From assembly GCA_947628695.1 (NCBI GenBank), contig CANRAV010000007.1, positions 19,549 through 83,548 on the forward strand: 64,000 nt of DNA, in the 5' to 3' direction. A model generated the notes under the pieces. That model worked only from the letters and a program-made list of their open reading frames with translations. It was not told where the DNA came from and did no database searches. Position 1 is the stretch's first letter, and each line of letters opens with the position of its first letter. The position numbers and the translations under genes are program-made. The stretch is from an uncultured Clostridia bacterium (GTDB lineage: Bacteria; Bacillota; Clostridia; Oscillospirales; CAG-382). Positions 9,485 through 47,024 of this stretch are shown here, one piece after another.

Positions 9485-9519
9485 ACATCTTATTAAAATA
9501 AACAAGAGGTATCTACACT

Positions 9520-32201: not shown

Positions 32202-32227
32202 TGCGTAGAAGTTTATGTTCTACGCAA
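32202..32227. repeat. Right recombination-site candidate (exact inverted copy of the left site)
   Basis: TGCGTAGAAGTTTATGTTCTACGCAA. The spacer GTTTATG is the reverse complement of CATAAAC, so the two sites are in inverted orientation. Confidence 0.65.
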
Positions 32228-32353
32228 ACAACTGCACCGGGAGCAGGCAATTCTTTGTGTTTCTGCTGCAATGACAGAGGTGCGAGAAGGACGTAGCAAA
32301 TCTACCGGTAATTGATAGATAAACGAAGCAAATAAAGCGGAGGTGGGGTGTAT

Positions 32354-33472
32354 TTGATCGAGTTTAGGCCAAAGCTTAGGGATGGCCGCTTAGTTGTCAG
32401 AGTAAAGCTGTCCCCTTATGATGTGATCAACGGCACCGAGCTTGATATTATCTCCGGCTCTTACATCCGAGGCTTTTTGAAAGCAAGGCAAATCAAACGA
32501 AATGTGATTGAATATACAGGCCCGGTTGGAATTCCATTGGTCAGCCGTATGAAGAAACCCATTTCTCAATATGACTTTTTCTTTATCATGGAGCAGATTG
32601 TTGACGCAGCGCAAAAACTGCAGCGTTCCAACCTTCTTCCCGGGAAAGTGACTTGGGATATTCGCAATGTTTATATCAATGAGGCAACCAAAGAACTGCA
32701 GTTTATATACGTGCCGATTACATCGGCTCAGATAAATTCAAATATCATAGCATTTATAGAGTCTATAGTTTATGCAGCGATTCCGTTGCCGAATCAGAAT
32801 CCGGATTATATTTCACAGTTTTTGTATTTCATTAATTCGCTGCCAAGATTCAATGCGGATGCAATCGAGAAATATATTGCCAAGGTTGATAGAAAAGTTG
32901 TAAACACAATCAAACAGCATGCCTCCGTTTCAAGTGGATTTATGACCGACAAGCCAAAAGATTATTATGCGCATCTTGACGAGAAAAAGGGAGAGGGCAA
33001 TGATAATGAACCGGCGGATTATATTGACGATGATGCACCGACGGATCTTCTTGATGAAGAAAAAACAGGCCTTCTCGACGAAGATGCGCCAACAGGGCAT
33101 CTTGATGAAGGAGAAGAAACAGGATTGCTGAGTGATGAAGAGGGGACAGCTCTTCTTGATGAAAGCGGAACAGATATTCAATACCCCACGCTTTGCCGTG
33201 TTTTAACCGGGGAAACAATTGTTATCAACAAGCCGGTTTTCCGCATTGGAAAAGAACACAGCTATGTTGACTTTTTTGTCAGCAACAATAATGCAGTCAG
33301 CAGAAGCCACGCAGATATCATAACCAGAGGACAGAGATATTTCGTTATTGATCTGAACTCGAAGAACAGAACCTTCATTAACAATCAAGCACTTCCCGTA
33401 CAGCAAGAAGTGGAAATCTTTAACGGAGATCGATTAAAATTGGCGAACGAAGAGTTTGTGTTCAGTATATAG
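32354..33472 (+). CDS. FHA-domain protein with an N-terminal ~200-aa domain, an acidic T-x-L-L repeat linker and a C-terminal FHA
   Basis: The C-terminal FHA is FRIGKE...VSRSHADI...DLNSKNRTFINN. The linker has 5 repeats of the (E/P)TxLLDE type. TTG at 32354 lies 9 nt after GGAGGTG; the ORF track starts at GTG 32348. Confidence 0.8.
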   Translation: MIEFRPKLRDGRLVVRVKLSPYDVINGTELDIISGSYIRGFLKARQIKRNVIEYTGPVGIPLVSRMKKPISQYDFFFIMEQIVDAAQKLQRSNLLPGKVTWDIRNVYINEATKELQFIYVPITSAQINSNIIAFIESIVYAAIPLPNQNPDYISQFLYFINSLPRFNADAIEKYIAKVDRKVVNTIKQHASVSSGFMTDKPKDYYAHLDEKKGEGNDNEPADYIDDDAPTDLLDEEKTGLLDEDAPTGHLDEGEETGLLSDEEGTALLDESGTDIQYPTLCRVLTGETIVINKPVFRIGKEHSYVDFFVSNNNAVSRSHADIITRGQRYFVIDLNSKNRTFINNQALPVQQEVEIFNGDRLKLANEEFVFSI

Positions 33473-33486
33473 AAGGGGACAGTCTT

Positions 33487-34146
33487 ATGAGCAAATTGTG
33501 CCGAAATTGTAATACGGTGTTGGACGACACGGATACATTCTGTTTTCACTGTGGGACGCCTGTGGACACTTCCAATGACGGGGAAACAAGCCTTTTGACA
33601 GATGATAATGAAGAAACGGGGCTCCTAAACAGCACCGATAAAGATACCTCTTTACTTGACGAGGAAACGAGGGAGTTGAACCCCGAGGATATGCCAAGAT
33701 ACACGCCGCAGTATGCTCCTTCGCAGCCGTCATTTGGTCAAAACACGCCTAATTCACCGCAGAGATTGAGCGAGAAGGATTTTTATGAAAAATTCGTCTC
33801 GAAAAAGATAAAAGGGTGGACTACGGCTATCGGCGTGCTTTCGCTTGTTTCAGGCGGAATTAATCTGCCGCTCTTATTTCTCGGCAATTTGCTTTCGATT
33901 ATAGACATTGCTTTTTATGTTTCAATGGGCATTTTGATATTAACAACAAAAAAATGGGGACTGCCGCTTGCGGTCACTATATACAGCGGGGTCTTTTCCG
34001 TTATCACCGTTGCGATCAGCGGTATTCCCAGTGGAATTGCAGTATTGATAGTTGGAATTTTCGCAACAATCTATCTTAAAAAAGCAAACGATGCATACAA
34101 ACTGTATTGCGAATCCGGGGTACTCCCCCAGAAGCCTGTTGAGTGA
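33487..34146 (+). CDS. Zinc-ribbon membrane protein with T-x-L-L repeats
   Basis: It has an N-terminal CRNC...CFHC ribbon, then ETSLL/ETGLL/DTSLL repeats, then 3-4 C-terminal TM helices. Confidence 0.7.
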   Translation: MSKLCRNCNTVLDDTDTFCFHCGTPVDTSNDGETSLLTDDNEETGLLNSTDKDTSLLDEETRELNPEDMPRYTPQYAPSQPSFGQNTPNSPQRLSEKDFYEKFVSKKIKGWTTAIGVLSLVSGGINLPLLFLGNLLSIIDIAFYVSMGILILTTKKWGLPLAVTIYSGVFSVITVAISGIPSGIAVLIVGIFATIYLKKANDAYKLYCESGVLPQKPVE

Positions 34147-34159
34147 GGAGGAGCAAAAG

Positions 34160-34921
34160 ATGCGGTTTTTAGCAACTGCGGACACCGACATCGGGATCAG
34201 TAAAGGCACAAATCAAGACAGCGTTTTAATAAAACATGCCGCATACGATGACGGCGAGACACTAATGGCCATCGTATGCGATGGGATGGGCGGACTCTCT
34301 AAAGGTGAGCTTGCCAGCGCAACCGTAATTCGGGCGTTTTCCAAGTGGTTTGAAGAAGACCTCCCTTATGAGCTCGATGATGTAAACATGGAGGTCATCG
34401 GCGGGAAATGGTCGCTGATGCTGAAGGATCTGAATGCAAAGATTGCTGAATACGGAAAGCAAATAAATGAAAGCTTAGGTACCACATTCTCCGGTATCCT
34501 TTTTGCCGGTGATCAATACGTTATTGTCCATGTAGGGGATTCACGCGTTTATCAAATTGGGTCTTCCATGCGTCAACTCACTACGGATCAAACCTTCATT
34601 GCCAGGGAAATCAGCCGTGGTACTATGACGCTGGAGCAGGCGAAAACAGACAAACGCCGCAATCTCCTTTTGCAATGTGTAGGTGCGTCTGAGGTTGTCA
34701 CTCCGCAGGTGTTGTGCGGAAAGGCGGAAAAAGGCGCATACATGCTCTGCTCGGACGGATTTCGCCATGAAATTAGCGATGAAGAAATGTATGAATCGCT
34801 CAACCCGATAAACTTAATGAACAAACAGGCGATGCATAATAATACGAAATATCTGATCGAGCAGGCAAAGTCGCGTAAAGAAAAGGATAACATCTCCGTT
34901 ATCCTGATCAAAGCGGAGTGA
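34160..34921 (+). CDS. PP2C-family Ser/Thr protein phosphatase
   Basis: It has TDIGISKGTNQDS, the CDGMGG metal-binding motif and a C-terminal DNISVILI. ATG at 34160 follows GAGGAGGAG. Confidence 0.88.
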   Translation: MRFLATADTDIGISKGTNQDSVLIKHAAYDDGETLMAIVCDGMGGLSKGELASATVIRAFSKWFEEDLPYELDDVNMEVIGGKWSLMLKDLNAKIAEYGKQINESLGTTFSGILFAGDQYVIVHVGDSRVYQIGSSMRQLTTDQTFIAREISRGTMTLEQAKTDKRRNLLLQCVGASEVVTPQVLCGKAEKGAYMLCSDGFRHEISDEEMYESLNPINLMNKQAMHNNTKYLIEQAKSRKEKDNISVILIKAE

Positions 34922-34932
34922 GGTAAGACGAC

Positions 34933-36657
34933 ATGACGGAAATCGGCACCGTAATTGACGGCAAGTATGAGATACTGAAAGAAATCGGCCGCGGCGGTAT
35001 GTCTATCGTCTATCTCGCCATGGATAAGCGGCTCAATAAGCAGTGGGCGGTTAAGGAAATACGCAAAAAGGGCAGCGGTAAGAATGACGAAGTTGTTGTC
35101 AACAGCCTGCTTGCGGAAGCCAACTTAATGAAGAGGCTGGATCATCCCGCTTTGCCGAGGATTGTCGATATTATTGATAATGGCGTAACGATCTATGTAG
35201 TCATGGACTACATAGAGGGCGAATCCCTCGATAAGATCCTTAACGAGTACGGTGCGCAGCCTGAAGAAACGGTCATTACTTGGGCAAAGCAGCTTTGTGA
35301 TGCGCTCTCCTATCTGCACTCACAAAAGCCACCGATTATTTATCGCGACATGAAGCCGGCCAACGTCATGCTCAAGCCGGAAGGCAATATTAAAATTATT
35401 GATTTCGGCATTGCACGTGAGTACAAGGAGCAAAACCTTGCCGATACCACGGTGCTTGGTACTAAGGGCTATGCACCTCCGGAACAGTACAGCGGTCAGA
35501 CAGATCCGCGTTCCGACATTTTCGCCCTTGGTATGACGATGCATCATCTGCTTACCGGAATTGATCCGAGGAACGGCGACGCCTACTCATCTGTTCGTCA
35601 GTGGAACCCGGAGCTTTCGGAAGGTATTGAGGCAATCATTGATAAATGCGTTCAGCCGGCGGCAGAAAACCGATACCAAAGCTGCGCAGATCTGCTGTAT
35701 GACCTTGAACATCCCGAATTGATTACCGGAGGGTTCAAGAAAAAGCAGAAAAGAAAACTGGGTGCCTTTATTACCGCAGCGGTTTTGAGCGCCTTGATGT
35801 TAATCTCCGGGCTTGTCTGCCGAGGGCTGGCTGCCATGATTAACACAAATAACTATGAGGCGTATATCGCATCCCAAAACAATATAGAAAACTATAAACT
35901 GGCTATCGAGCTGTATCCGAACGATCCGAGGGCATACGATAGGATTTTGGATACATTTGACAACAGCATCAACACAAGGTCGGATTCCGATGCGGAGAAG
36001 CTGCTTACATCGGAGGAGTTAAAGCAGTTTGAAGCACTTTACGACCCAAGCGATGACGCGAAGTACAGCAGCGATTATCAGGGCTTTTCGGAGCTCAACT
36101 ATCGCATCGGGAAAATGTGCTTTACCTATTACGACAGGACTCTTTCGCAGAACGAAAATTTCAGCGCGAGAATCAATAAGGCGTATATCTATCTGAATCA
36201 AAACCACACCTTTATTCAGAATTCACAGGTGGCGCAGTCATCCGGTAACATGCAGCTTTCCGAGTGCTACTTTCAAATTTGCGACTTCTATAAAAAGTAT
36301 ATCTTCAGCCAAACGGCGGACACGGCCTCTGCAGAGGATTTCGCAAGCTTTTTCGGTTCATTGGATGACTTGCTTGACGGTGTAGAGAGCAATTCATCCG
36401 CTACTGCCTATGATAAGCTGGAGCTGTACAACAACATATTCATGCTTCTGTATGACAGAAGAGCGGATATGGTTTCCGCAGGCGTCAGCCGGGACATTGT
36501 GCTGGAGCTGTTTGACAGGGTCTACAGCAGCGCTGAAGAAATTGATGCCTCCCAGCGGACACTGTGGACTGTCCTTAAGGCTGAAATGCAGGATAATTAC
36601 GCAACCTACAAGGCTGCGATTCAAAGGGCCTATACCAATGCGGAGGGAAGGGGTTAA
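34933..36657 (+). CDS. Hanks-type Ser/Thr protein kinase with one TM and a ~280-aa extracytoplasmic domain
   Basis: The kinase motifs are a G-loop (GRGGMSIVY), a catalytic Lys (WAVKEI), a catalytic loop (YRDMKPANVM), DFG, and GTKGYAPPE. The TM is at about aa 265-290. No PASTA repeats were recognised. Confidence 0.88.
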   Translation: MTEIGTVIDGKYEILKEIGRGGMSIVYLAMDKRLNKQWAVKEIRKKGSGKNDEVVVNSLLAEANLMKRLDHPALPRIVDIIDNGVTIYVVMDYIEGESLDKILNEYGAQPEETVITWAKQLCDALSYLHSQKPPIIYRDMKPANVMLKPEGNIKIIDFGIAREYKEQNLADTTVLGTKGYAPPEQYSGQTDPRSDIFALGMTMHHLLTGIDPRNGDAYSSVRQWNPELSEGIEAIIDKCVQPAAENRYQSCADLLYDLEHPELITGGFKKKQKRKLGAFITAAVLSALMLISGLVCRGLAAMINTNNYEAYIASQNNIENYKLAIELYPNDPRAYDRILDTFDNSINTRSDSDAEKLLTSEELKQFEALYDPSDDAKYSSDYQGFSELNYRIGKMCFTYYDRTLSQNENFSARINKAYIYLNQNHTFIQNSQVAQSSGNMQLSECYFQICDFYKKYIFSQTADTASAEDFASFFGSLDDLLDGVESNSSATAYDKLELYNNIFMLLYDRRADMVSAGVSRDIVLELFDRVYSSAEEIDASQRTLWTVLKAEMQDNYATYKAAIQRAYTNAEGRG

Positions 36658-36659
36658 TC

Positions 36660-37160
36660 ATGGCAGACGTATTATCAATTGTTTCGCTTGTCTCCTTCAT
36701 CATTGCAGGTATCAGCCTTGCCGTTGCAGTGTTCCTCTGGTTTAGCTTTAAAATCCCAACGGTTATCGGAGATCTGACCGGAAAAACAGCCAAAAAATCC
36801 ATTGCAAAGATGCGCAAAAGCAACGAGGCTTCCGGGAACAAATCTTACCGTCCAAGCGCAGCTAATGTGAATCGCGGCAAGATTACGGATTCCATCCCGG
36901 ATTCGGCAAAGCCGAATTCGCAGGCAGCCGCTTCCACTCCTTTTGATAAAGGTCAAACGGGAATCCTCGATGAAAACAAAGCATCCGGGAACTGTGCAGA
37001 GCCTACCGCAGCGCTTGATGACAGCGCAACCGAGCTTCTTTCGGGCAGTGAAGAAACCGAGCTGCTTCCACAGGAAGCGCAGGCAAAGCGCAGGGCTGCA
37101 ATTAAGAAATTGAGAATGCTTGATGAAGTCATTTATATCCACACCGATGAGGTGATTTAG
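36660..37160 (+). CDS. Single-pass membrane protein with a cytoplasmic T-x-[LI]-L repeat tail
   Basis: It has an N-terminal TM (IVSLVSFIIAGISLAVAVFLWF), then QTGIL, PTAAL, ATELL and ETELL motifs. It starts 3 nt after the kinase stop. Confidence 0.65.
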   Translation: MADVLSIVSLVSFIIAGISLAVAVFLWFSFKIPTVIGDLTGKTAKKSIAKMRKSNEASGNKSYRPSAANVNRGKITDSIPDSAKPNSQAAASTPFDKGQTGILDENKASGNCAEPTAALDDSATELLSGSEETELLPQEAQAKRRAAIKKLRMLDEVIYIHTDEVI

Positions 37161-37245: not shown

Positions 37246-37731
37246 ATGGGATATGGAGCGTATTTATCGATAAAACGGCGAAAGAAAATGAAATTTGCCT
37301 TTATTGGCTCGCTCTCTTTGATGTCGCTGTCAATTGCCTTCATGCCGATAGCCAGCGAGTACCGTGGAGACAGCATGCTGCCCACCATACTAACGGGAAC
37401 GGCATTTTGGGTGGGGTTAATAGGTACGGTATTGATTGCGATATGGATCAATCGACGCCGAAAGAAAAGCACGCGTTTCAATGAATTGTATCCAAACGCG
37501 AAACAGCTTGGCGTTGTCCGTTTTTTTCAGAACAAGCCGGCGACGGTTGTGGACATTGCAATGTTTGCGGCTCTTTTGGGTTTGATAATTACCAAATTGA
37601 CTGTAGATCGGATTATCATCCCATTTGTATTTTTAGCTTTATTTGTTTTTCTGTTTGGTATGCACTGTATGCTAAACGGAGTTTGCTATAAATATCTAAA
37701 CTATAGGACAGGGAGAGGTAAAGAATTATGA
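37246..37731 (+). CDS. Small polytopic membrane protein (about 4 TM)
   Basis: A hydrophobic ORF with a GAGGAA RBS. Its stop overlaps the start of the giant gene (ATGA). Confidence 0.6.
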   Translation: MGYGAYLSIKRRKKMKFAFIGSLSLMSLSIAFMPIASEYRGDSMLPTILTGTAFWVGLIGTVLIAIWINRRRKKSTRFNELYPNAKQLGVVRFFQNKPATVVDIAMFAALLGLIITKLTVDRIIIPFVFLALFVFLFGMHCMLNGVCYKYLNYRTGRGKEL

Positions 37732-40700
37732 GACACGGAAAAAACAATGCTTTAAATAGTGCGTTAGCTGTGTTGCTTTCAGTCATGATGGTGGTTGCAA
37801 TGCTGCCGACAGGCGTATTTACTGCCTTGGCAGCAACAGAAAACCATGAGGGTGTTTTCACATTCACTGTGACCGAGAAAGAGGAAGGCAACCCTGTTGT
37901 GGGCGCAGCAGTTCGTTTGTACAACGAAGAAGGCGAGGATTGGACGCAGGAGACGGGCGAAGACGGCGTTGCCGAATTTTCCGAGTTCACGGGCAAGGGA
38001 CTTGCCGGAACCATATCCGGGAATTTCAGTTATGAGGTTACTGCGGACGGATATGAAAAGGCTTCCGGTACCGTTGACGGAAGCGATGACCAATGGATCG
38101 GGAATATTGCCGTTGAACTGAATGCGCTGACTGTCGAGCAGAAGACGGTTACCGTTGTCGTATCCGGCGGAGAAGCAACAGTTGAGCTTGACGGCGAAGA
38201 AACAAATTCGAAGACAGTCAATGTCGGCGACTCTGTTAAAGTGAAGATTACTCCGGAAGCGGGCTCTTATATTAAGAACCTAACGGTAGGGGGAACAGAG
38301 GAAACCGTTGATCACGGCCAGCCGTTTGAAAAAGATATCAATATCGACGAGGATACCGATATCAATGTAACAATCCAAAAGGAATATACCGTTTCAATCG
38401 TCCGGAACGGAGAGGGCACTGTTACCGTCAGCAAGGCCGACGGTTCCACTGTGTCCGATCAGGCAAAAGTTGATGCCGGGGAAGTGCTTACGATCAATGT
38501 AGCGCCAAAAGATGACAGTTATCAAATTGACTCGGTGAAAATCAATTCCGATGAGATGCTGACTGACGACAACAAGACGTCATACAAAGGCACCGTCACG
38601 GTGAATGACGATGTGAAAATTGAGGTTGTCTTTGTTGCGGTGTTCAGCGTCACCGTGACGGTTGACGGCTCCGGGGATGCAAGCGTCATGCTCGACGGGG
38701 AGGTTATCGGTGGAGCCGGTGGATCTGTAACGGTCAAAACGGGAACGAAAATCGATGTGGAAGCGACGCCGCATGAACACTATCGGGTTATTGACGTTAT
38801 CGTTAACGGCGTTCCCAAAGAAGATGTATCCGGGAAAAATGACTCCGACTACAAAATCGAAGGGCTTGAGGTAAATCAGACTTATGAAATTACGGTTACC
38901 TTTGCCCTGAACGTATACACTGTTACGGCTGATGAAGCGAAGAACGGGACTGTAACGGTTGAAGAGCCTGCTCAGGTCGAATGGGGCAAGGATAAAAAGG
39001 TCTATGTATCTCCGGCAGACGGATATACGATCGATAAGATTACCGTTGATTCCGAACCTGTCGAAGCTGTCTCCGGTGATGACGGAGGATTCTATTTTAT
39101 CGTTGCAAACATTCAGTCCGATAAGAATGTAATAGTCACCTTCAAGGAAAAAGCAAAAGCAACGGACGCCGATTTTACAATAGACGAACGTAATATTTTG
39201 CGTTCGGAAGTGGGGGCCGACTCTGCGCTTTATGTCATAAAGCAAGACACCTCCGTTACCTTCTCCACAGATAAGGCGGGAATCAAACTCATTGATGACA
39301 AGGGGCTTGTAATAGGCGGAAGCGAGAACGAAAAGTCTGTCTCTGTTTCCGAAGCGAAAACTATTGATAAAATACAACTGTATTATAAGGCCGATGAAGA
39401 GCTATATGAGGATTGGCATGATGTGCAAACTGTGAAGAAGGAGGTTTTTGTTGACACAGAGGCTCCTACTGTACAGTTTGATGCTGTTAAACCGGATATG
39501 AACGCCAACGGATACCACCATACGGATATTGAGGTAACCGTAAAGGCCACGGATGCTCCGGAGAAAAAATATTCCGGTATTCAAAAGTTAGAATATTTAA
39601 TTAGCGACGACGGCAAGGATGGCTCTTGGAATACACTGTATGAGTATTCCGAGGACAGTGAAATTGAGAATGTCATTACAAGCACAGTCGACATTGATGC
39701 GACGGAGCATAATTCCCGTGATGTAATACTGAAAATCAAGGCGACAGACCTTGCGGGAAATACCAAAGAACTTCAAAAAGAATTCCACATCAACAGCACC
39801 GTTCCTTTAGTTAAGCTTGAACTGGACGGCGTATCGAACGTGAATGCCGAGACCGGATATTTCACCACAGATCGCGTGCTTACCATTACTATTACAGACC
39901 GCGACGATACTTTTGACAGGAACGCCGTTGCAGACGGGCTTAAAATTACCGCAGACGGAAACGCGGTCGAAGTGAAACCCGAGGATATTGATTGGGGCGG
40001 CAATGATCAAGAGCATACCGGGACGTATGTGTTCTCCAAAGACGCTCACTACAAATGGAGCTTTTCCTACACAAATAAAGCAGGTGTGGAAAATAAAGAT
40101 ATTACATGCGCGAATCCCGAAGATGCAAGCTTTTACGATTTTACAATCGACCATGAAGGCCCCCGGGAATTGAGTATTGAATACAGCCCAAGTATCACTG
40201 ATGTTTCGTTCGGTGACCTGAGCTATGGGTTCTACAATTCCGATGTGACAGTAACAATAAAAGCAATCGATAAAACTGCGGGAATTAAAGAGTTTGAATA
40301 CTTTTGCAAGGAACAGGGAAGCGGCGAGACAATTTTTCACAAAACCGTCAATGCCAATGATCCGAATTTCAAGGTAAACGGTGATGAAACAAGCTATACA
40401 TTCACTATTCCTGCTGAATTCCGCGGTTCGGTAAGCTTCTCTGCGACCGATAAGGCAGGGCAGACAAATTCCTATGACGATCCCAAAATCATTGTTGTTG
40501 ATAACGTTGCGCCAAAAGTAACTGTTAGCTATGATAACAATGAAGTCGAAAACGAAAAATACTACAAAGGCAAGAGAACTGCTACAATTGAAATTGATGA
40601 AGCGAATTTCTTCGGCACCGATGAATACGGACAGGCCGATTTCAATGATTTGATTTCAGGCAAGGAGAATACTTACCTTGAAATAACCGACGGCTTCCAT

Positions 40701-43700
40701 ACATATAAGCTGTGCCCGGAATTTAAGGAAACGTCCGACGGGAAGTATGTAGCCACAGTTAGCTTCGACGAAGACGCCGATTACACATTGACCGTCAAGT
40801 ACACGGATAGATCGGGCAATGAAGCGGTTATCGGCGAATATCAGGAGGAATTCACGGTTGATACGACCGCCCCGACTATCGAAGTATCTTTTGATAATAA
40901 CAAAGCAGCAAATGAAAAATATTTTGCTGCGGATCGGAAAGCAACAATTAAGGTAACAGAGCACAATTTTGACCCCGCTGCTTTTACCGCCGGTATCGTG
41001 TGCCCCGACTCTCCGACGACCGATTTTGATGCTTATCTGCAAAATACTTCAAGCTGGCATAGCGACGGCGATGTCTACACGGCGGTAATTACGTTTAAAG
41101 ACGACGGGCACTACACCTTCAATCCTTCCTGCCGCGACAAGGCCGGTAACGATAACACCGCGGTTGATTACGGAGAATCTGTTTCGACTGAGGAGTTTGT
41201 ATTGGATAAGGCTGCCCCGGATCAGGAAAGCCTTAAGATTTCCTATTCCGAATCGGTTTTGGATACCGTTTTGGAGACAATCTCCTTTGGATTCTATAAA
41301 GCCCCGGTAACCGTTACAATCGAAGCAGCGGATCAAACCTCCGGAATTGATTACTTTACTTATACCTATGCAGTAAGCGATGGCGTGAGCGCAAAGAATC
41401 AGGGAAAAGAGAGCGTGGTTATCGCACATTCCGAAATAATTACTTCCGGGAATTCCGCCAGTGCAACCTTCCAAATCCCCGCACAGTTCCGCGGCACTGT
41501 TTCTTTTGCCGCAACCGACATGGCAGGGAACAGCGGAGATAAGGCTGACAGTAAGGTCGTTGTCGTTGACGATATCGCACCCGGCATTACGGTGTCTTTT
41601 GACAACAACGATGTAAGAAACGGGAAATATTACGCCAAGGATAGGACCGCAACAATCACTATCGATGAAGCGAACTTCTTTGGCGATGCCGACAGAGAGT
41701 ACCTTGCAATCTCCGTGACCAAACGGCTTTTGAGCGGCTCGAAGTCGGAGACAACGACAAAGCTGTATCCCGAGTTTACCAAAAAAGGCGATACATACAC
41801 AGCTGAAATCGAGTTTAATGAGAATGCCGAGTATAAGCTTGAAATCGAGTATACAGACCGTTCCGGCAACGTCGGGACCGTTGCAGAGTATCAGAAGGAA
41901 TTCGTTATCAATAAGGAGTCTCCGAAGCTTTCGATCTCCTATGATAACATGTCTGTACAGAACGAAACCTATTACAGGGCGGACCGTGTTGCAACGGTTC
42001 AAATTGTAGAAAGCACATTCCGCGCAAGCGAAGTTGAGTTCACTATTTCCGCGACGGATGTGACGGGCAAGGCTGTCGATTTAAGCAGTAAGGCGTATGA
42101 GACCTATTTGAAGGATCAGAGCAGCTGGACAATGTCCGGGGATAATGTATGGACGGCTCAGATCACGCTGGATATCGAAGGCAGCTACGAGCTGAACCTC
42201 AAATATGAAAACCTCGCCGGAACGCCTCAGGAAAAGGAGGTAACCGATTCCTTCTGCATTGATAAGAGCAAGCCGGACAACCTTAAAATCTCCTACAAGC
42301 CGGATTTTGTCGGCGTACTGTTGGAGACCCTGACCTTCGGGTTCTACAAGGCGCCTGTGGAAGTAACACTTGAGGCCACAGACGGTTATGCCGGGGTGGA
42401 TTACTTTGTGTACTCCTATAAGGTTCAGGAGAACGCAAGCAAAAAGAATGCAGGGAAGACAGCTGTCAAGACGGTTGAAGGTCAGTTGTCCCGCAAAGGC
42501 AGCAAAGCTTCTGTGACATTTGATATTCCGTCGCAGTTCCGTGGATTTGTTTCCTTTGATGTGTTTGATAAATCGGGAAATAAAAACAGCTTAGCCGATG
42601 CAAATGCAGTTGTTGTCGACGATCTCCCGCCTCAAATTACCGTGACATACGACAACAACGATGCGTCCTACGAGAAATATTACAACAAAGACAGGGTCGC
42701 AACTATCACAGCCGAAGAGGCCAACTTCTTCTATGAGGATTTGACGAAGGACAACCTTTTGGTGATTACCGTCGATAAGACTACGGATGCAGGCGTGCAT
42801 ACCGCGGAAAAGGTAATGCCTGCATTTACCAAGAACGGCGATGTGTACACAGGCACCGTCGAGTTTAGGGAGAATGCCGATTACAAATTTACAATTGAAT
42901 ACACCGATCGTTCCGGCAACGCTGCGGTAATCAAGGAATACCAGACCGAATTTACCGTTGATAAAACAGCGCCGACGGTCAAAGTTACCTACGACAACAA
43001 CAGCAGCAAAAACGGCGATCAGTTTAAGGAAGACCGCACGGCAACCATTGTAATTACGGAACACAACTTCAAGCCTTCCGATATTGTCGCAAAAGTAACC
43101 GCTAACGGAACGGAAGTTACGGATTATGCTTCCTATCTGAAAAACGCCGACAGCTGGACGACCGATGGGGATGTCCACACGGCCAAGATTGAGTATACAG
43201 ACGAAGCGCACTATGAATTCAGCATTGGCTATTCCGACATGGCCGGTATAAAAAATGCGCCTGTTGACTATGCCGATTCGGCTGCACCGGAAAAATTCAC
43301 TCTTGACAAGAGCGCTCCGACACAATTGGAAATCACGATCGACGGCAAGTCTGTATTGGAAAGCAAAGGCATCGCGTTTGATACGTTCTACGACAAAGCG
43401 GTGACTGTGAAATTTGCCGCAAACTGTGATATCAGCGGATTGGAGTCCTTGAAGTACCAGAAGGTTCCTTCCGTATCCGAATACGATGTGAACGGTCAGT
43501 GGATTGATTATAACACCGAAACAGGTGTTGTTGTCACACCAAGCGAAAAGTTCATCATCTATTTCAGGGCGGAAGACAGAGCGGGAAACTTCACAATTGT
43601 CAACTCGACCGGTATCGTCGTCGACGATAAGATGCCGGAGGGTACCGGTGAAAAGAATGCGCCTGAGATTGACATTTTCCCGGCTGAACCGAATGCTAAC

Positions 43701-45968
43701 GGCTTCCATAACGGGAATGTTAAGGTGGATTTGCATGTCATCGATCCGAAGTACACCGGGCAGAGCGCAAGCGCAGCAGGGCATTATTCCGGACTTAATG
43801 AAATCACCTACCGTATTTACACGACGGATATGGGCGCGGATGTTCAGGAAACAGGCACTTTGCTTGAGCTTGGAGCTCAAACGAATGGCGCCGTGTTTGA
43901 CGGCGACCGCTTGGTCAGCTCGTGGTCCGGAAGCATTACGATTGACGCGGCTGTGTTTAACAGCAATAACACGATCGTTGAAATTACGGCCACCGACAAC
44001 GCCGGCAATACAAGGGTTACCGCGACCAAGGCCGGAGACATTCAAATCGATGTGACCGCTCCGGAAATCAATGTTAGCTACAACAATAACACAGCCGACA
44101 GCAATTTTTTCTTTAATGAAGACAGAACGGCTACAGTTGTTGTGACGGAGCGCAACTTTGCCCCGGAGGATGTCAAGGTGACAATCACTAACACTGACGG
44201 CGTGATCCCTTCACTGTCCGAGTGGAGGCAAATCTCTGCCGGAACCGGGAACGGAGACGGCACCGCTTGGGAAGCAACCGTCACATACAGCGCAGACGGT
44301 GATTACACGTTTGACATTACCTATACAGACCTCGCCGACAATCTTATGAGCGGGGTAGGCTACGGGGAAAGTGTTGTGCCGACCGAGTTTACGATCGATA
44401 AAACACTGCCGACAATCTCGGTAAGCTACAGCAACAATGATGCGGCGAACGAAAAATACTTCAAAGCACCCCGAACGGCTACGGTTACAATCAACGAACA
44501 TAACTTTGATGTGAACCGCGTGACGTTTACAAGAACAGCAGCTCTGGACGGAGCGGCGATTGATCTGCCAAATGAATCCTGGGAGCATAACGGCGATGTG
44601 CATACGGCAACCATCCCGTACACGGCTGACGGCGATTACACATTTGATGTTACAATGACGGATCTCGCAGGCAACCGGAGCGAGGCTGCAAACTACGGGG
44701 ACTCTGTTGCGGCGAATGACTTTACGGTTGATCAAACCCGTGACAACGGCGGTGCATCCGTTATAGGCGGCGTTGAGGACGGACAAGCTTATTCCGGCAA
44801 TGTGGTTCCGTCGATCAACTTCACGGATGTCAACTACAGCAATTATGAAATTCACCTTTATCGTACCAGAAAAGATCAGATTCATGTCGATGTTACTGAT
44901 GAGAAGAATATTCGCTCCCTGATTACAGAGAGCGAGCAGAACATCAGCGGTGAACTTAATATCTTCGCCAAGAACACAAGTGGAAAATATAGTGTCGAGG
45001 ACGACGGTATCTACACGCTGGAGATCACTGCCTACGATATGGCCGGCAACGAACATCCCGAGACTGTAACCTTCACTGTAAACCGTTTCGGCTCCGTGTA
45101 TGTGTATGACGCCTATCTGATTTCCTTGATTCAGGAAGGCGGCGCTTATGTGCAGGGACTTACCGGTGATCTGATTATTACAGAGTATAACGCCACCAGA
45201 CTTGTCAATGACTCCCTGAACATTGAAATTACGCTTGACGGCCGTCCCATTGAGGCCAAGTATGTCGCTGACCCTGTTCCGAACGCAAATGTCGATGTTG
45301 GGCAAAGCGGATGGTTCCAGTATCAGTATACCGTAAGCAAAGATAACTTCAAAGCCGACGGTATGTACCGCATAACCCTCTCCTCCGAAGATGAGGCAGC
45401 CAATACGCCTGAAAGCAATCCGAACAACTCAACGGACAAAGACGGAAATGCAATAGTCGATACGATGCAGTTCCGCGTTGACAGTACAGCTCCGGAAATA
45501 ACAAGCATCGTCGGTCTGGAGAACAGGATCATCAATGGGCAAAAAGTAGACGTTCGATATTCTGTATATGATGCGATTGGCTTGAAGTCCATCACAGTGT
45601 ATTTGAACGGCAAGGCTCAAGATCCGATTACCGAGTTCGACGATATAAACAACTACTCCGGCACATTTACGGTAAGCGAAAGCTCCGACGCACAAAAGGT
45701 TCGCATACTCGTCGAGGATAAGGCCGGAAACACCATTGACACCGATGATTTCGGCAAGGAAGACGCTGACGGAAACGTTATCGTGCCGATGCCTGCTTAC
45801 TCCTTTAACAGCACCGTAACGGTATCTACGAACTTCTTCGTTCGTTGGTATGCGAATAAGCCTCTGTTCTGGGGTTCAATCGGCGGTACTGTCGGCATGG
45901 CAGCAGTCATTTGGATTCTCATCGTTCTGATTAAAAAGAAAAAGAAGAAGAGCAGTGAGAAAAAATAA
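37728..45968 (+). CDS. Giant (2,746 aa) Ig-like-repeat surface protein with a signal peptide and a C-terminal TM anchor
   Basis: - An N-terminal signal peptide is present.
- Four ~85-aa B-repeat-like units follow.
- At least 10 repeats then carry the signature D(K/T)xAPxhxVxYDNN...KYY...DR(T/V)ATIxIxExNF.
- The C-terminus has a hydrophobic helix and a KKKKKKSSEKK tail, with no LPxTG. Confidence 0.85.
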   Translation: MRHGKNNALNSALAVLLSVMMVVAMLPTGVFTALAATENHEGVFTFTVTEKEEGNPVVGAAVRLYNEEGEDWTQETGEDGVAEFSEFTGKGLAGTISGNFSYEVTADGYEKASGTVDGSDDQWIGNIAVELNALTVEQKTVTVVVSGGEATVELDGEETNSKTVNVGDSVKVKITPEAGSYIKNLTVGGTEETVDHGQPFEKDINIDEDTDINVTIQKEYTVSIVRNGEGTVTVSKADGSTVSDQAKVDAGEVLTINVAPKDDSYQIDSVKINSDEMLTDDNKTSYKGTVTVNDDVKIEVVFVAVFSVTVTVDGSGDASVMLDGEVIGGAGGSVTVKTGTKIDVEATPHEHYRVIDVIVNGVPKEDVSGKNDSDYKIEGLEVNQTYEITVTFALNVYTVTADEAKNGTVTVEEPAQVEWGKDKKVYVSPADGYTIDKITVDSEPVEAVSGDDGGFYFIVANIQSDKNVIVTFKEKAKATDADFTIDERNILRSEVGADSALYVIKQDTSVTFSTDKAGIKLIDDKGLVIGGSENEKSVSVSEAKTIDKIQLYYKADEELYEDWHDVQTVKKEVFVDTEAPTVQFDAVKPDMNANGYHHTDIEVTVKATDAPEKKYSGIQKLEYLISDDGKDGSWNTLYEYSEDSEIENVITSTVDIDATEHNSRDVILKIKATDLAGNTKELQKEFHINSTVPLVKLELDGVSNVNAETGYFTTDRVLTITITDRDDTFDRNAVADGLKITADGNAVEVKPEDIDWGGNDQEHTGTYVFSKDAHYKWSFSYTNKAGVENKDITCANPEDASFYDFTIDHEGPRELSIEYSPSITDVSFGDLSYGFYNSDVTVTIKAIDKTAGIKEFEYFCKEQGSGETIFHKTVNANDPNFKVNGDETSYTFTIPAEFRGSVSFSATDKAGQTNSYDDPKIIVVDNVAPKVTVSYDNNEVENEKYYKGKRTATIEIDEANFFGTDEYGQADFNDLISGKENTYLEITDGFHTYKLCPEFKETSDGKYVATVSFDEDADYTLTVKYTDRSGNEAVIGEYQEEFTVDTTAPTIEVSFDNNKAANEKYFAADRKATIKVTEHNFDPAAFTAGIVCPDSPTTDFDAYLQNTSSWHSDGDVYTAVITFKDDGHYTFNPSCRDKAGNDNTAVDYGESVSTEEFVLDKAAPDQESLKISYSESVLDTVLETISFGFYKAPVTVTIEAADQTSGIDYFTYTYAVSDGVSAKNQGKESVVIAHSEIITSGNSASATFQIPAQFRGTVSFAATDMAGNSGDKADSKVVVVDDIAPGITVSFDNNDVRNGKYYAKDRTATITIDEANFFGDADREYLAISVTKRLLSGSKSETTTKLYPEFTKKGDTYTAEIEFNENAEYKLEIEYTDRSGNVGTVAEYQKEFVINKESPKLSISYDNMSVQNETYYRADRVATVQIVESTFRASEVEFTISATDVTGKAVDLSSKAYETYLKDQSSWTMSGDNVWTAQITLDIEGSYELNLKYENLAGTPQEKEVTDSFCIDKSKPDNLKISYKPDFVGVLLETLTFGFYKAPVEVTLEATDGYAGVDYFVYSYKVQENASKKNAGKTAVKTVEGQLSRKGSKASVTFDIPSQFRGFVSFDVFDKSGNKNSLADANAVVVDDLPPQITVTYDNNDASYEKYYNKDRVATITAEEANFFYEDLTKDNLLVITVDKTTDAGVHTAEKVMPAFTKNGDVYTGTVEFRENADYKFTIEYTDRSGNAAVIKEYQTEFTVDKTAPTVKVTYDNNSSKNGDQFKEDRTATIVITEHNFKPSDIVAKVTANGTEVTDYASYLKNADSWTTDGDVHTAKIEYTDEAHYEFSIGYSDMAGIKNAPVDYADSAAPEKFTLDKSAPTQLEITIDGKSVLESKGIAFDTFYDKAVTVKFAANCDISGLESLKYQKVPSVSEYDVNGQWIDYNTETGVVVTPSEKFIIYFRAEDRAGNFTIVNSTGIVVDDKMPEGTGEKNAPEIDIFPAEPNANGFHNGNVKVDLHVIDPKYTGQSASAAGHYSGLNEITYRIYTTDMGADVQETGTLLELGAQTNGAVFDGDRLVSSWSGSITIDAAVFNSNNTIVEITATDNAGNTRVTATKAGDIQIDVTAPEINVSYNNNTADSNFFFNEDRTATVVVTERNFAPEDVKVTITNTDGVIPSLSEWRQISAGTGNGDGTAWEATVTYSADGDYTFDITYTDLADNLMSGVGYGESVVPTEFTIDKTLPTISVSYSNNDAANEKYFKAPRTATVTINEHNFDVNRVTFTRTAALDGAAIDLPNESWEHNGDVHTATIPYTADGDYTFDVTMTDLAGNRSEAANYGDSVAANDFTVDQTRDNGGASVIGGVEDGQAYSGNVVPSINFTDVNYSNYEIHLYRTRKDQIHVDVTDEKNIRSLITESEQNISGELNIFAKNTSGKYSVEDDGIYTLEITAYDMAGNEHPETVTFTVNRFGSVYVYDAYLISLIQEGGAYVQGLTGDLIITEYNATRLVNDSLNIEITLDGRPIEAKYVADPVPNANVDVGQSGWFQYQYTVSKDNFKADGMYRITLSSEDEAANTPESNPNNSTDKDGNAIVDTMQFRVDSTAPEITSIVGLENRIINGQKVDVRYSVYDAIGLKSITVYLNGKAQDPITEFDDINNYSGTFTVSESSDAQKVRILVEDKAGNTIDTDDFGKEDADGNVIVPMPAYSFNSTVTVSTNFFVRWYANKPLFWGSIGGTVGMAAVIWILIVLIKKKKKKSSEKK

Positions 45969-46017: not shown

Positions 46018-46112
46018 GCCCGAAAGTCTATTCATCAGAATCCGGATTATGCATTCGTGCTTAGTTCGGCTTGTAATGAATAGCGCCGGCAAATTGATAG
46101 GAAGTGATAAAA

Positions 46113-47024
46113 ATGAACACTTTAATTGAAAAGGAAGTCGTAAGCGAAATGACCTGCGGTTCTAATTTTGCCTATGTGCTGACCGATAACGCTTCCTTCC
46201 TTACGACGGAATACAAGGTCTTACAGAGCAAAACAAGCAATTGCTTTGTGCGCTGTATGAAGATGCTTTATAACGGAAAAATTCAGCTTTATTACCTGAC
46301 GGGAACGTATAAGCCGTTATCTTCTCTATTTTCAACCTTGGATGCGGAAAGGTTTATCACTATTACCGCCAATCTCCTATCTGATATTATCGAGGTAAAG
46401 AGCAACGGGTTTCTGTCCTGCCAAAATATAGATATTTCGTTTGAGCACATTTTCGTTGACCCGGCGACATATAAGGTGAGCCTGATTTATTTGCCGTTGA
46501 GCCGGCACATGTTTGACGATACTGCGTATTTCGATAACGAGCTGCGTACAAGCCTAATTAAGTTGATTTCCGGGCTGAGCAACTTATCCTCGCCTAAAAC
46601 GATCCGGCTATCATCCGATTTGTCAAACGGTGCATTGTCGCTGGAAGATTTGTATAACAGGTTGAAGGGCAACCGTCCTGACCCCCGACTTAATGTCGAA
46701 TCCCGCCCTGCGAGTTCTCCTGCTTCAAATGTTCGGATTGTTTCTCTTAACGCTCCTGCACGTGTGGAGATCAACATCACAAAGGACGAGTTTATACTTG
46801 GGAAAAAGGCCGATAAGGTGGACGGCGTGCTTTCCTTTAATGACAAAATCAGCCGCGTGCATTGCAAAATCAACCGAAACGGCGACCGGTTCACTATAAC
46901 GGATCTACATAGTGCCAACGGAACCTATGTAAATCATGTTCGCCTTCAGCCTGATGTGGCACAGCCCATAAAAAACGGTGATTTAATCCGTTTGGCCAAT
47001 AGTGATTTTCAGATTGTTATGTGA
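46113..47024 (+). CDS. Second FHA-domain protein, a paralogue-like partner of 32354-33472
   Basis: The C-terminal FHA is FILGKK...ISRVHCKI...DLHSANGTYVN. The N-terminal domain shares the pattern NI(D/Y)h...(L/V)x(F/L)IY(L/V)P with the first FHA protein. Confidence 0.8.
   Translation: MNTLIEKEVVSEMTCGSNFAYVLTDNASFLTTEYKVLQSKTSNCFVRCMKMLYNGKIQLYYLTGTYKPLSSLFSTLDAERFITITANLLSDIIEVKSNGFLSCQNIDISFEHIFVDPATYKVSLIYLPLSRHMFDDTAYFDNELRTSLIKLISGLSNLSSPKTIRLSSDLSNGALSLEDLYNRLKGNRPDPRLNVESRPASSPASNVRIVSLNAPARVEINITKDEFILGKKADKVDGVLSFNDKISRVHCKINRNGDRFTITDLHSANGTYVNHVRLQPDVAQPIKNGDLIRLANSDFQIVM

Follow-up and report, generated by a model that had tools for sequence, protein, structure and literature searches.

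The gut-Clostridia T7SS locus in the window, that is, in the whole stretch of 64,000 nucleotides analysed here, encodes three proteins that carry arrays of a short threonine motif, T-x-[LIV]-L, in disordered, acidic, cytoplasmic segments, namely the soluble adaptor FHA1, the single-TM protein TM1 and a Zn-ribbon membrane protein that joins them in this lineage. Sequence comparison indicates that the arrays are conserved over hundreds of related genomes; they look like the activation loop of the locus kinase itself and are probably the sites that it phosphorylates and sites of docking. We consider it reasonably probable that they are multi-site threonine phospho-acceptor linear motifs ('pseudo-activation-loops') that are read by FHA domains, recruit FHA1 and license the T7SS.

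The locus encodes two DUF6382+FHA proteins, a Hanks kinase, a PP2C, YukD, EssC and WXG100, and Pfam confirmed the inventory given in an earlier note on this DNA (one Hanks kinase, one PP2C, two FHA proteins and EssC). All genes, arrays and domains given with coordinates below are on the + strand. FHA1 (32348..33472; Pfam FHA E = 1e-13, DUF6382) matches TsxJ of T7SSe/j. The Zn-ribbon membrane protein (33487..34146; Pfam Zn_Ribbon_1), which has only 10 homologues in the database, has its zinc ribbon at the N-terminus and its membrane domain at the C-terminus, with an acidic linker in between. The PP2C (PPM) phosphatase, the presumed eraser (34160..34921; Pfam PP2C_2 E = 2e-10), adjoins the FHA1 orthologue in 78/81 loci; translation likely starts from the ATG at 34160, and the resulting 253 aa agree in length with the gene called on an identical assembly and with the orthologues. 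The Hanks-type Ser/Thr kinase, the presumed writer (34933..36657; Pfam Pkinase E = 5.5e-50), has one TM helix, a helical C-terminal domain and readable kinase motifs (Gly-rich loop, VAVK Lys, YRD, DFG, APPE). TM1 (36660..37160) has no Pfam match and fits the description of TsxK; in the alignment of 58 orthologues, the N-terminal TM helix is followed by a basic juxtamembrane segment that is conserved, a spacer that varies, the array and a conserved C-terminus (L-x-x-L-[DE]-E-V-x-x-I-H-T-D-E-V-I), and the K/R-rich stretch past the TM helix suggests, by the positive-inside rule, that the tail is cytoplasmic. The order FHA1-PP2C-kinase-TM1 is fixed across Clostridia, and a four-TM membrane protein, TM2 (37246..37731), is conserved downstream of TM1. 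Then come a TsxI-like repetitive surface protein of 2746 aa (37728..45968), with an N-terminal signal-like segment, a C-terminal TM helix, an InlB B-repeat match, faint Big_ matches and orthologues in 35 loci; FHA2 (46104..47024), a DUF6382+FHA paralogue without motif array; a TsfV-like ATPase (47040..48095; Pfam AAA_31, MipZ, CbiA) with TadZ-like receiver and ParA/MinD-type domains; a YukD/EsaB-like ubiquitin-fold protein (48106..48360; Pfam YukD); the EssC (TsxC) ATPase (48371..52882; Pfam FtsK_SpoIIIE) with N-terminal FHA-like domains; and a WXG100 (EsxA-like) protein (60266..60559; Pfam WXG100 E = 3.7e-20). A lox-like invertible recombinase cassette lies directly upstream.

Translation of the three ORFs recovered all 12 motifs that the earlier note had listed, with Leu at T+3 in 12/12 and L or I at T+2 in 10/12. 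The FHA1 array (33035..33163) comprises five [DE]-x-T-x-[LH]-L units at a spacing of 8-9 residues (T232 APTDLLDE, T240 EKTGLLDE, T249 APTGHLDE, T258 EETGLLSD, T267 EGTALLDE), and in the AF2 model the linker is disordered (pLDDT < 50 at residues 194-275) and the domains exceed 90. The array of the Zn-ribbon protein (33583..33678) holds T34 ETSLLTD, T44 ETGLLNS, T54 DTSLLDE and a fourth site missed at first reading, T61 EETREL, and that of TM1 (36954..37073) holds T100 QTGILDE, T116 PTAALDD, T124 ATELLSG and T133 ETELLPQ. The DNA range first assigned to the TM1 array was in frame, and those for FHA1 and the Zn-ribbon protein lay 1-2 nt out of frame and are replaced by the in-frame ones given here. 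Each of the three arrays is far above chance (P ≤ 5e-5), as evaluated by shuffling residues within the linker 200,000 times and counting T-x-[LI]-L: the FHA1 linker has 4 (shuffle mean 0.11; matched in 0/200,000 shuffles), the Zn-ribbon linker 3 (mean 0.12; P = 4.5e-5) and the TM1 linker 3 (mean 0.04; P = 1e-5). Moreover, the arrays are no recent DNA tandem repeat, Tandem Repeats Finder giving one weak 27-nt two-copy match (33002-33054).

The earlier note had proposed to look for motifs that are kept while the surrounding linker drifts, and comparison of orthologues shows this decisively for FHA1 and TM1 and in part for the Zn-ribbon protein, where T34 and T61 are almost invariant and the middle two motifs are lost gradually in some homologues. 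When 81 loci were scanned without bias for 3 or more motifs within 45 aa, 70/81 FHA1 orthologues and 40/58 TM1 orthologues were positive, as were 3/1020 other, neighbouring genes, all three within hydrophobic TM segments; these counts and the following ones are not phylogenetically independent. The same scan found no array in 75 kinase, 77 PP2C or 35 surface-protein genes, nor in any of the 12 FHA2 orthologues, which serve as an internal negative control. Furthermore, at least 2 strict motifs occur in 121/150 FHA1 representatives of 50%-identity clusters, down to ~35% identity, and at 30–40% identity the linkers are wholly different in length and sequence and the arrays are still kept. Divergent relatives of FHA1 have repeats such as EATSLL (six copies), GDTGLLEE (four) and EETGLLDT (four), and the copy number ranges from 2 to 10 in FHA1 orthologues and from 1 to 7 in TM1 orthologues.

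The motif is almost exclusively a threonine motif. At the first residue of x-x-[LIVM]-L, FHA1 linkers have Thr in 153 cases and Ser in none, the Thr:Ser ratio is 179:6 in TM1 tails and 505:16 in the FHA1 cluster representatives, and for x-G-[LIVM][LIVM] there are 200 Thr and 1 Ser. In the logo, D/E occupy positions -4 to -2 (E in 76% of cases at -2), G is found at +1 in 75% and L at +2 in 92%, and position +5 is again E/D. 'GLL' is the dominant core, and the consensus reads [DE][DE]E-x-T-G-L-L-x-[DE]. It agrees with the Hanks-kinase substrate motif of M. tuberculosis, which consists of four acidic residues, T, x, x and a large hydrophobic residue (quoted in PMC6888350). The pattern of the arrays is also present in the activation loop of the window kinase, L-A-D-T-T-V-L-G-T (T172; 35437..35463), which holds the sole T-x-x-L of this 574-aa protein, and D-T-T-V-L is near-invariant among orthologous kinases. 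The exclusivity for Thr, the acidic surroundings combined with large hydrophobic side chains at +2/+3, the identity to the activation loop, the location in disordered cytoplasmic segments and the fixed linkage to the PP2C and kinase genes together suggest that the motifs are kinase substrate sites readable by FHA domains. Thr exclusivity alone is no proof of FHA reading, as a preference of the kinase or a phospho-independent pocket requiring the Thr methyl group would also give it.

The FHA domain of FHA1 (33173..33469) has as putative pThr-binding residues K302, S318, R319, H321, S338 and N340, which were assigned by HMMER alignment to the FHA domains of GarA and DgcB and sit in invariant columns of the orthologue alignment. 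Its best Foldseek matches are FHA-phosphopeptide complexes (DgcB 6hc1, FhaA 3poa and EmbR 2ff4). The expectation that the pThr-binding residues would be conserved in FHA1 and FHA2 thus holds for Ser-Arg, His and Asn but not for the canonical Arg, which is a Lys in the beta3-beta4 loop; K302 of FHA1 aligns with the Arg of GarA, and in FHA2 orthologues Lys and Arg swap at this position (GK/GR). No motif is docked on the FHA domain in the AF2 model, which is unphosphorylated and hence uninformative for phospho-dependent binding. The N-terminal DUF6382 domain of FHA1 is predicted to have an EssB-like pseudokinase fold, since its kinase-like model is matched by YukC/EssB (6z0f, 9qks_C, 4ano) and TraF (8cba) in Foldseek, the similarity to EssB being moderate (TM-score 0.4-0.57). 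In addition, some FHA1 orthologues have a zinc ribbon fused to the C-terminus.

EssC was found to differ from what had been expected. Of the four FHA-type domains counted in the earlier note, those of the two FHA proteins and one of EssC (residues 128-190, 26 bits, with I-G-S replacing G-R) are detectable by Pfam, but the preceding EssC domain has no FHA signature detectable in this way. The FHA-like domains of EssC lack the Arg and His that bind pThr in canonical FHA domains, and probably the Ser as well, so the proposed multivalent recruitment of EssC through pThr is unsupported. By analogy with T7SSb, its partner is more likely the EssB-like pseudokinase domain of FHA1/FHA2.

From these data we infer that the threonines would be phosphorylated and bound by FHA domains, which would bring FHA1 to the membrane and couple it to EssC. 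A signal, presumably extracellular, would lead the Hanks kinase to autophosphorylate its D-T-T-V-L activation loop, and the activated kinase would then phosphorylate the look-alike [DE]-x-T-G-L-L units, whose pThr, each with Leu at +3, could be recognised by the FHA1 FHA domain and perhaps also by the FHA2 one. Because FHA1 would be both reader and carrier of sites, and TM1 and the Zn-ribbon protein would contribute membrane sites only, phosphorylation would draw FHA1 molecules to the membrane and join them there into cross-linked, multivalent assemblies. There the EssB-like pseudokinase domain of FHA1 may engage the phospho-blind FHA-like domains of EssC and license assembly or activity of the T7SS, and PP2C would reset the system. 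The coupling to EssC is the weakest link, the match between DUF6382 and EssB being moderate.

Alternatively, the arrays could be kinase substrates without FHA docking and without any specific reader, acting through a bulk change of charge or conformation of the linker or as a phosphate sink or timer that buffers the kinase. The fit of the motif to the kinase substrate consensus and to the activation loop, the non-canonical Lys at the key Arg position and a copy number varying from 2 to 10, which would suit a graded charge device, are all compatible with this. However, Asp and Glu already make up ~27% of the linker residues, hence extra phosphates would alter the charge little; 54% of all linker threonines have Leu at +3, the position that FHA domains read (PMC4157861); and in every FHA1 orthologue the array is fused to an FHA domain with invariant or almost invariant Ser-Arg, His and Asn, and we therefore regard this explanation as unlikely. 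It is similarly improbable that E-x-T-G-L-L is a phospho-independent hydrophobic docking peptide with a structural Thr, whose partner would be another locus component; candidates are a docking groove of the kinase, the DUF6382 pseudokinase domain, the EssC FHA-like domains and the TadZ-like ATPase. Many phospho-independent short motifs have such an LL pair with acidic flanks, and the EssC FHA domains of T7SSb bind their partners without phosphothreonine (PMC11217815), but the near-absolute preference for Thr over Ser, the identity to the activation-loop segment of presumed autophosphorylation and the strict linkage to the kinase and PP2C genes point to a phospho-acceptor, and the array-less FHA2, which sits with the EssC, YukD and ATPase genes, argues against a motif required for binding EssC or the ATPase. 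That low-complexity acidic sequence and the expansion of repeats produced the motifs as a functionless by-product is hardly credible and is effectively refuted by the conservation data: the linkers are compositionally biased and homogenised repeat units in several lineages imply recent duplication, but the arrays exceed composition-preserving shuffles, are not DNA tandem repeats in the window, keep the T-x-L-L core to ~30% identity despite turnover of unit length, spacer and copy number, and occur independently in the unrelated TM1 family.

The multi-site phospho-acceptor system favoured here would be a variation on known phosphothreonine-FHA signalling in a T7SSe/j-like locus, the likeness being one of the set of components. 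T7SSe/f/j have been proposed to be regulated by a kinase, a phosphatase, FHA domains and threonine phosphorylation (Garrett & Palmer 2024, PMC11217815), thus this general idea is already published; that paper names neither substrate nor motif, and the arrays in TsxJ- and TsxK-like proteins are undescribed there. Common to T7SSe/T7SSj and our locus are WXG100, a YukD-like protein, EssC with N-terminal FHA-like domains, the membrane Ser/Thr kinase (TsxD), the PPM phosphatase (TsxF), the large Ig-like surface protein (TsxI), which has a TM helix at its C-terminus, DUF6382-FHA (TsxJ) and the single-TM protein (TsxK), whose cytoplasmic stretch is unstructured. However, our locus encodes two paralogues of TsxJ, of which one carries arrays and the other none, and also the ATPase resembling TsfV of T7SSf, the Zn-ribbon membrane protein and the four-TM protein; moreover, the pThr-binding residues are reported to be kept in TseC/TsjC and partly in TsfC (PMC11217815), whereas EssC here is without Arg and His.

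Outside these systems, Rv1747/PknF of M. tuberculosis likewise combines FHA and a disordered linker with multiple Thr acceptors in one polypeptide, with the cognate Hanks kinase in the same operon, and once it is phosphorylated, FHA and pThr associate within and between molecules, which leads to clustering and phase separation at the membrane (PMC8339232, PMC3138270). Rv1747 has two main sites (T152, T210) without stereotyped repeat, two FHA domains and a transporter output, whereas here a single motif is repeated 2-10 times, each chain has one FHA domain, additional membrane partners carry sites only, and the locus belongs to a secretion system. The GarA/OdhI switch has an acidic E-T-T-x-V/L-type motif (E-T-T-S-V-F) in the disordered part of an FHA protein; Hanks kinases phosphorylate this motif, the FHA domain of the same protein binds it, and the GarA FHA domain ranks high among the matches of that of FHA1 in both sequence and structure; but GarA uses a single N-terminal site as an intramolecular off-switch for binding metabolic enzymes, in contrast to the arrays, the Lys in place of the canonical Arg and the pseudokinase partner domain here. 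EsrG1 of Schaalia odontolytica (PMC13622651, 2026 preprint) is also Esx/T7SS-linked and is encoded alongside kinases, a phosphatase and a giant surface sensor with Ig repeats; pT152 was detected by phosphoproteomics and a T152A mutant is blind to the signal. Yet it belongs to Actinomycetota, and has a pseudophosphatase instead of a pseudokinase N-domain, one mapped site and a transcriptional output as described. The T6SS threonine phosphorylation pathway (PpkA-PppA-Fha1; TssL-Fha in Agrobacterium) has a Hanks kinase, a PP2C and FHA in a secretion locus, where a membrane component, once phosphorylated, recruits the FHA protein and secretion is switched on (summary in PMC11217815), but it serves an unrelated Gram-negative machine through single phosphosites with no repeated motif. 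Finally, the FHA1 FHA domain finds its best match, in structure as in sequence, in Bdellovibrio DgcB (PDB 6hc1), whose FHA domain binds a phosphorylated tail of the same protein, there a single site with a diguanylate cyclase output.

On the forward strand, Pfam matches and ORF anatomy give the following gene order: a tyrosine recombinase; FHA1 (32348-33472), built of a DUF6382 domain, an acidic linker and an FHA domain; a zinc-ribbon membrane protein (33487-34146), with an acidic linker before its membrane domain; a PP2C phosphatase (34160-34921); a Hanks-type kinase with one TM helix (34933-36657); the single-TM protein TM1 (36660-37160); the four-TM protein TM2 (37246-37731); a 2746-aa Ig-like surface protein with a C-terminal TM helix; FHA2 (46104-47024), a paralogue of FHA1; a TadZ/ParA-like ATPase; YukD; EssC (48371-52882); helical small proteins and a lipase-like protein; and WXG100. 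The one Hanks kinase, one PP2C and two FHA proteins which the earlier note had placed at this locus are all found here. The components of the T7SSe and T7SSj systems are all matched, namely TsxA (WXG100), TsxB (YukD), TsxC (EssC), TsxD (kinase), TsxF (PPM), TsxI (large Ig-like protein with a C-terminal TM helix), TsxJ (DUF6382-FHA) and TsxK (single TM helix and unstructured tail, here TM1), and an ATPase like the T7SSf component TsfV is present in addition (PMC11217815). By its component list the locus would be of the T7SSe/T7SSj type, a label that here spans e, j, f or a hybrid. No TPR was matched by Pfam in the C-terminal domain of the kinase, so that this domain is unusable for choosing T7SSe or T7SSj.

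Translation recovered all 12 motifs previously listed in three of these ORFs, and Leu, said to stand at T+3 in nearly all of them, does so in 12/12. The array of FHA1 (374 aa) consists of APT232DLLDE, EKT240GLLDE, APT249GHLDE, EET258GLLSD and EGT267ALLDE (in frame at 33035-33163), that of the zinc-ribbon protein of ET34SLL, ET44GLL and DT54SLL (33583-33678), and that of TM1 of QT100GIL, PT116AAL, AT124ELL and ET133ELL (36954-37073); the DNA ranges first assigned to the former two arrays were 1-2 nt out of frame. Together with a further site in the zinc-ribbon protein, EET61REL, which had not been listed, this makes five candidate sites in FHA1 and four each in TM1 and the zinc-ribbon protein. 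When residues were shuffled inside each linker 200,000 times, 0.04-0.12 T-x-[LI]-L motifs were expected per linker, against the 3-4 observed (P from <5e-6 to 4.5e-5). In the AF2 model, residues 194-275 of FHA1 are predicted to be disordered between two confident domains. We infer a cytoplasmic location for each of the three arrays, because FHA1 is soluble and, by the positive-inside rule, because a K/R-rich stretch precedes the TM1 tail and the linker of the zinc-ribbon protein comes ahead of its first TM helix.

FHA1 has 1621 homologues at E <= 1e-5, and its family forms 353 clusters (50% identity) at E <= 1e-30. In alignments of 26 and 82 FHA1 sequences, the only linker columns that are kept are the T and L of the repeats. 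The comparison set comprised 80 related loci (31-58% identity) from Lachnospiraceae, Oscillospiraceae, Ruminococcaceae, Clostridium and other genomes, among which the gene order FHA1-PP2C-kinase-TM1-(TM2)-surface protein is fixed. An unbiased scan over all genes of the loci for at least three T-x-[LIVM]-L inside 45 aa was positive for 70 of 81 FHA1 orthologues and 40 of 58 TM1 orthologues, and for 3 of 1020 other genes, each time in hydrophobic TM segments. The same scan detected no array in the genes for FHA2 (0/12), kinase (0/75), PP2C (0/77) and surface protein (0/35). The expectation of the earlier note that the arrays are conserved in orthologues is therefore borne out for FHA1 and TM1, and in part for the zinc-ribbon protein, in whose tiny family (10 proteins) T34 and T61 hardly vary, with the other two motifs degraded in some of the proteins. 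Moreover, a C-terminal zinc ribbon is fused onto some FHA1 orthologues, which links FHA1 and the zinc-ribbon protein. At 30-40% identity, the arrays are the sole feature that FHA1 linkers have in common, as in EATSLL (six copies), DDFGDTGLLEE (four), EETGLLDT-QFPQW (four) and EEGTTLL. At least two strict motifs are present in 121 of 150 cluster representatives and at least three in 100, and the remaining representatives mostly have relaxed forms such as TGLM, TGFL and DTLL.

The copy number in FHA1 ranges from 2 to 10 and the units are often homogenised within one lineage, which suggests repeated duplication with the core under selection. Near-identical long units around the T-G-L-L core occur in the FHA1 linkers of L057, L058, L075 and P0195, for example the four copies of DDFGDTGLLEE, a D-L-P-T-G-L-M unit in seven or more copies and units of about 35 residues in L075; these point to arrays that, in some lineages, are still expanding in tandem and evolving in concert. 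In the window itself, a recent DNA tandem duplication was rejected as the source of the arrays, since Tandem Repeats Finder returned one weak 27-nt, two-copy match. In TM1 orthologues, the TM helix, the basic juxtamembrane block, the arrays and a C-terminal L-x-x-L-E-E-V-x-x-I-H-T-D-E-V-I are kept and the spacer drifts. Outside the arrays, TM1 orthologues have two strongly conserved blocks with threonines, G-D-L-[ST]-G-[RK]-T-A-[RK]-K-S-I ... R-G-K-[LI]-T next to the membrane and I-H-T-[DNE]-E-x-I at the C-terminus, the latter hydrophobic at T+3; they may be extra phosphosites or a docking helix.

The logos, built from 153 motif instances in FHA1 and 179 in TM1, are [DE][DE]-E-[AEP]-T-G-L-L-x-[ED] and [EN]-[EAG]-T-[GET]-[LV]-L-x-[DE], respectively, and successive motifs most often stand 9-10 residues apart in FHA1, against 7-9 or 16 in TM1. 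The first form of the regular expression for the FHA1 linker caught 31/81 orthologues, and a positional definition (77 orthologues) gave the same picture. The acceptor is almost always Thr, with Thr:Ser ratios of 153:0 (FHA1 linkers), 179:6 (TM1 tails) and 505:16 (cluster representatives), and Thr is the first residue of x-G-[LIVM][LIVM] in 200 cases and Ser in one, all of these counts being phylogenetically non-independent; elsewhere in the linkers, the two residues have about the same frequency. The arrays fit the consensus of M. tuberculosis Hanks kinases as quoted from Prisic et al. 2010 (PMC6888350), four acidic residues, T, x, x and a large hydrophobic residue, in their Thr acceptor, acidic positions -4 to -1 and large hydrophobic residue at +3. 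The locus kinase (574 aa) has, on reading its sequence, a complete set of catalytic motifs, and its activation loop, L-A-D-T-T-V-L-G-T, holds the only T-x-x-L of the protein and is near-invariant among orthologous kinases. Loop and arrays have in common an acidic residue, T, x, V/L and L, so that the arrays resemble copies of the autophosphorylation segment of the kinase itself.

As candidate readers, that is, phosphothreonine (pThr)-binding domains, the FHA domains of FHA1 and FHA2 are both recognised by Pfam (E = 1e-13 and 5.5e-17). The FHA1 domain has the FHA beta-sandwich fold, with Foldseek target-normalised TM-scores of 0.8-0.86 against FHA-peptide complexes; the nearest structures are the FHA-phosphopeptide complexes of DgcB (6hc1), FhaA (3poa) and EmbR (2ff4), and GarA. 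The pThr-binding triplet is Arg-Ser-Arg[Lys], in which the first Arg belongs to a G-R dipeptide in the beta3-beta4 loop (PMC4157861). FHA1 has G301-K302 instead of G-R, invariant in 82 homologues, with K302 aligned to the Arg of GarA. FHA2 is G-K too, and G-R is found in two FHA2 orthologues, which indicates that the position stays basic; these statements are based on aligned invariant columns and FHA2 orthologue sequences, a regular-expression count of GK and GR being unreliable beyond the close family. Invariant in FHA1 are also S318, R319 and H321 (Ser-Arg and the His of S-x-x-H in the beta4-beta5 loop) and S338 and N340 (Ser-x-Asn in beta6-beta7), and FHA2 has S-R-V-H and S-A-N in its pocket. 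Hence, of the pThr-binding residues, among which the earlier note had made its proposal depend on Arg, Ser and Asn, Ser-Arg, His and Asn are kept in both proteins, but the canonical Arg is replaced by Lys. Such a pocket may still read pThr. In the AF2 model of unphosphorylated FHA1, no motif is docked on the FHA domain in cis and the linker has pLDDT <50, which, in a model lacking phosphate, carries no weight against binding. The arrays could alternatively be a kinase substrate without any FHA reader, a view compatible with the substituted Arg and with the fit to the kinase consensus, which we consider unlikely beside the invariance of the remaining pocket residues.

The earlier note had also assigned two FHA-type domains to EssC and had it recruited through pThr. 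One FHA-like domain is detectable by Pfam (residues 128-190, 26 bits), and no FHA signature was matched in residues 1-120; when the N-terminal sequence of EssC was searched against the PDB, marginal Ki-67 matches were all that appeared (E ~1). The detectable domain has I-G-S at the G-R position and is devoid of S-x-x-H, and EssC was rejected as a pThr reader on these residues, in contrast to TseC/TsjC, for which conserved pThr-recognition residues are reported (PMC11217815). DUF6382, a Pfam domain of unknown function, forms residues 1-196 of FHA1 (32348-32935) and the N-terminal domain of FHA2 (46104-46700). Its AF2 model (pLDDT 91.5) has a kinase-like fold without catalytic motifs and no Pfam Pkinase match, and Foldseek matched it to TraF (8cba), YukC/EssB (6z0f, 9qks_C, 4ano) and Rv3910 (3otv/3uqc) at E = 4e-5 to 1e-3 with moderate TM-scores of 0.4-0.57. 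TraF is the T4SS homologue of the T7SSb pseudokinase YukC/EssB, and Rv3910 is likewise a pseudokinase. EssB/YukC has a TM helix and an extracellular domain, whereas FHA1 and FHA2 are soluble and have no TM segment. The predicted fold suggests that T7SS variants of this type could use a soluble EssB analogue, and a phospho-recruited adaptor of this kind may stand in place of the membrane EssB.

We propose that the kinase would autophosphorylate and then phosphorylate the look-alike arrays on FHA1, TM1 and the zinc-ribbon protein. The resulting pT-x-L-L would be bound by the FHA domain of FHA1, perhaps also by that of FHA2, whereby the soluble EssB-like adaptor would be tethered and cross-linked at the membrane; its pseudokinase domain would then, like EssB in T7SSb, bind EssC at the FHA-like domains, which would be phospho-blind, and PP2C would reset the system. 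FHA2, which has no array, adjoins the ATPase, YukD and EssC genes; it is a natural control and argues that the arrays belong to the kinase module and not to EssC binding. A phospho-independent docking motif, of which the LL pair and the acidic flanks are reminiscent, is improbable in view of the near-exclusive Thr acceptor and the likeness to the activation loop. That the arrays are a low-complexity by-product is scarcely credible, a compositional artefact being ruled out by the linker shuffles and the scan of 1020 neighbouring genes. A larger version of our proposal is tentative and doubtful: arrays and GK-type FHA domains would make a phospho-switchable multivalent scaffold, with 'pseudo-activation-loop' repeats written by the kinase on the TM1 and zinc-ribbon anchors and on the FHA1 adaptor and read by the FHA domain of the adaptor, in which cooperative clustering or condensation at the membrane would nucleate an EssB-less T7SS, the copy number (2-10) would tune the threshold and the whole module would be under ON/OFF DNA inversion. 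Should this hold, writer, eraser, reader and substrate would be packed into one compact set of genes, with a defined motif for a bacterial Ser/Thr kinase.

Similar logic is known from GarA/OdhI, with its E-T-T-S-V-F motif, from DgcB, and from the PpkA-PppA-Fha pathway of T6SS. In Rv1747/PknF, FHA domains go with a disordered linker that bears several sites, and clustering occurs (PMC8339232); the locus likewise has an FHA domain and a disordered multi-Thr linker in one chain and the kinase in the operon; the Esx-linked EsrG1 has a pseudo-enzyme domain, a linker with pT152 and an FHA domain (PMC13622651). What appears new is a stereotyped, repeated, family-wide motif common to two or three unrelated partners and the kinase activation loop, the Lys-type FHA pocket, the soluble EssB-like adaptor predicted from the models, and concrete candidate substrates for T7SSe/j-type systems. 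Defined substrate motifs of bacterial Hanks kinases are very rare, four phosphoproteomic studies with any motif being counted in a 2019 review (PMC6888350). Phospho-regulation of T7SS variants was proposed by Garrett & Palmer 2024, who named no substrates or motifs, and for the newly described variants that carry genes for a kinase, a phosphatase and FHA proteins no substrate is known (PMC11217815). That paper was the only one found on DUF6382 and the Tsx components, and our search found nothing relevant on the T-x-L-L-type motif. With a sharply defined motif that runs through the family, [DE]-x-T-G-L-L, and with named candidate sites, the FHA2 control and a plausible reader domain, the locus makes the proposed regulation of a widespread secretion system of gut Clostridia directly testable with peptides and point mutants, in which its interest mainly lies.

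Directly upstream of the FHA1 operon, the tyrosine recombinase gene (30886-32124, forward strand) lies between the arms of a perfect 26-nt inverted repeat (30700-30725 and 32202-32227), both of which are lox-like, each a palindrome around an asymmetric spacer, TGCGTAGAA-CATAAAC-TTCTACGCA. A homologous recombinase adjoins the FHA1 orthologue in 34/80 related loci, in either orientation, and equivalent repeats of 22-32 nt, 1.36-1.53 kb apart, are present in all seven loci checked (L001, L003, L015, L024, L044, L064 and L072, at ~8300-9960). The three assemblies with the same locus all have the + orientation. Promoter-like sites near both cassette ends are not above chance, and no paper on invertons with T7SS was found. 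The segment 30700-32227 resembles an invertible cassette that is complete in itself, a phase switch which, at the operon head, could phase-vary the kinase/T7SS module.

The G+C content is ~0.53-0.57 in 1-26000 of the window, drops to 0.46 within 26000-62000 and then to 0.38-0.42 across the T7SS region, which suggests that the T7SS module and effector genes were horizontally acquired. Further upstream lies a nucleotidyltransferase/HepT-like toxin-antitoxin pair (27603-28203; Pfam NTP_transf_2 and HepT-like matches on the identical contig), after which come a methyltransferase (28344-29099) and an exonuclease (29171-30523) that is RNase T/DnaQ-like and Cys-rich in an N-terminal segment. 'Reverse' lipase toxins have been noted at T7SSe loci (PMC11217815). 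Here, an Mbeg1-like/class 3 lipase-like ORF (58151-58732) is followed, after a stop codon, by a 343-aa ORF (58823-59854), and the two together could represent a T7SS lipase effector that was split or frameshifted.
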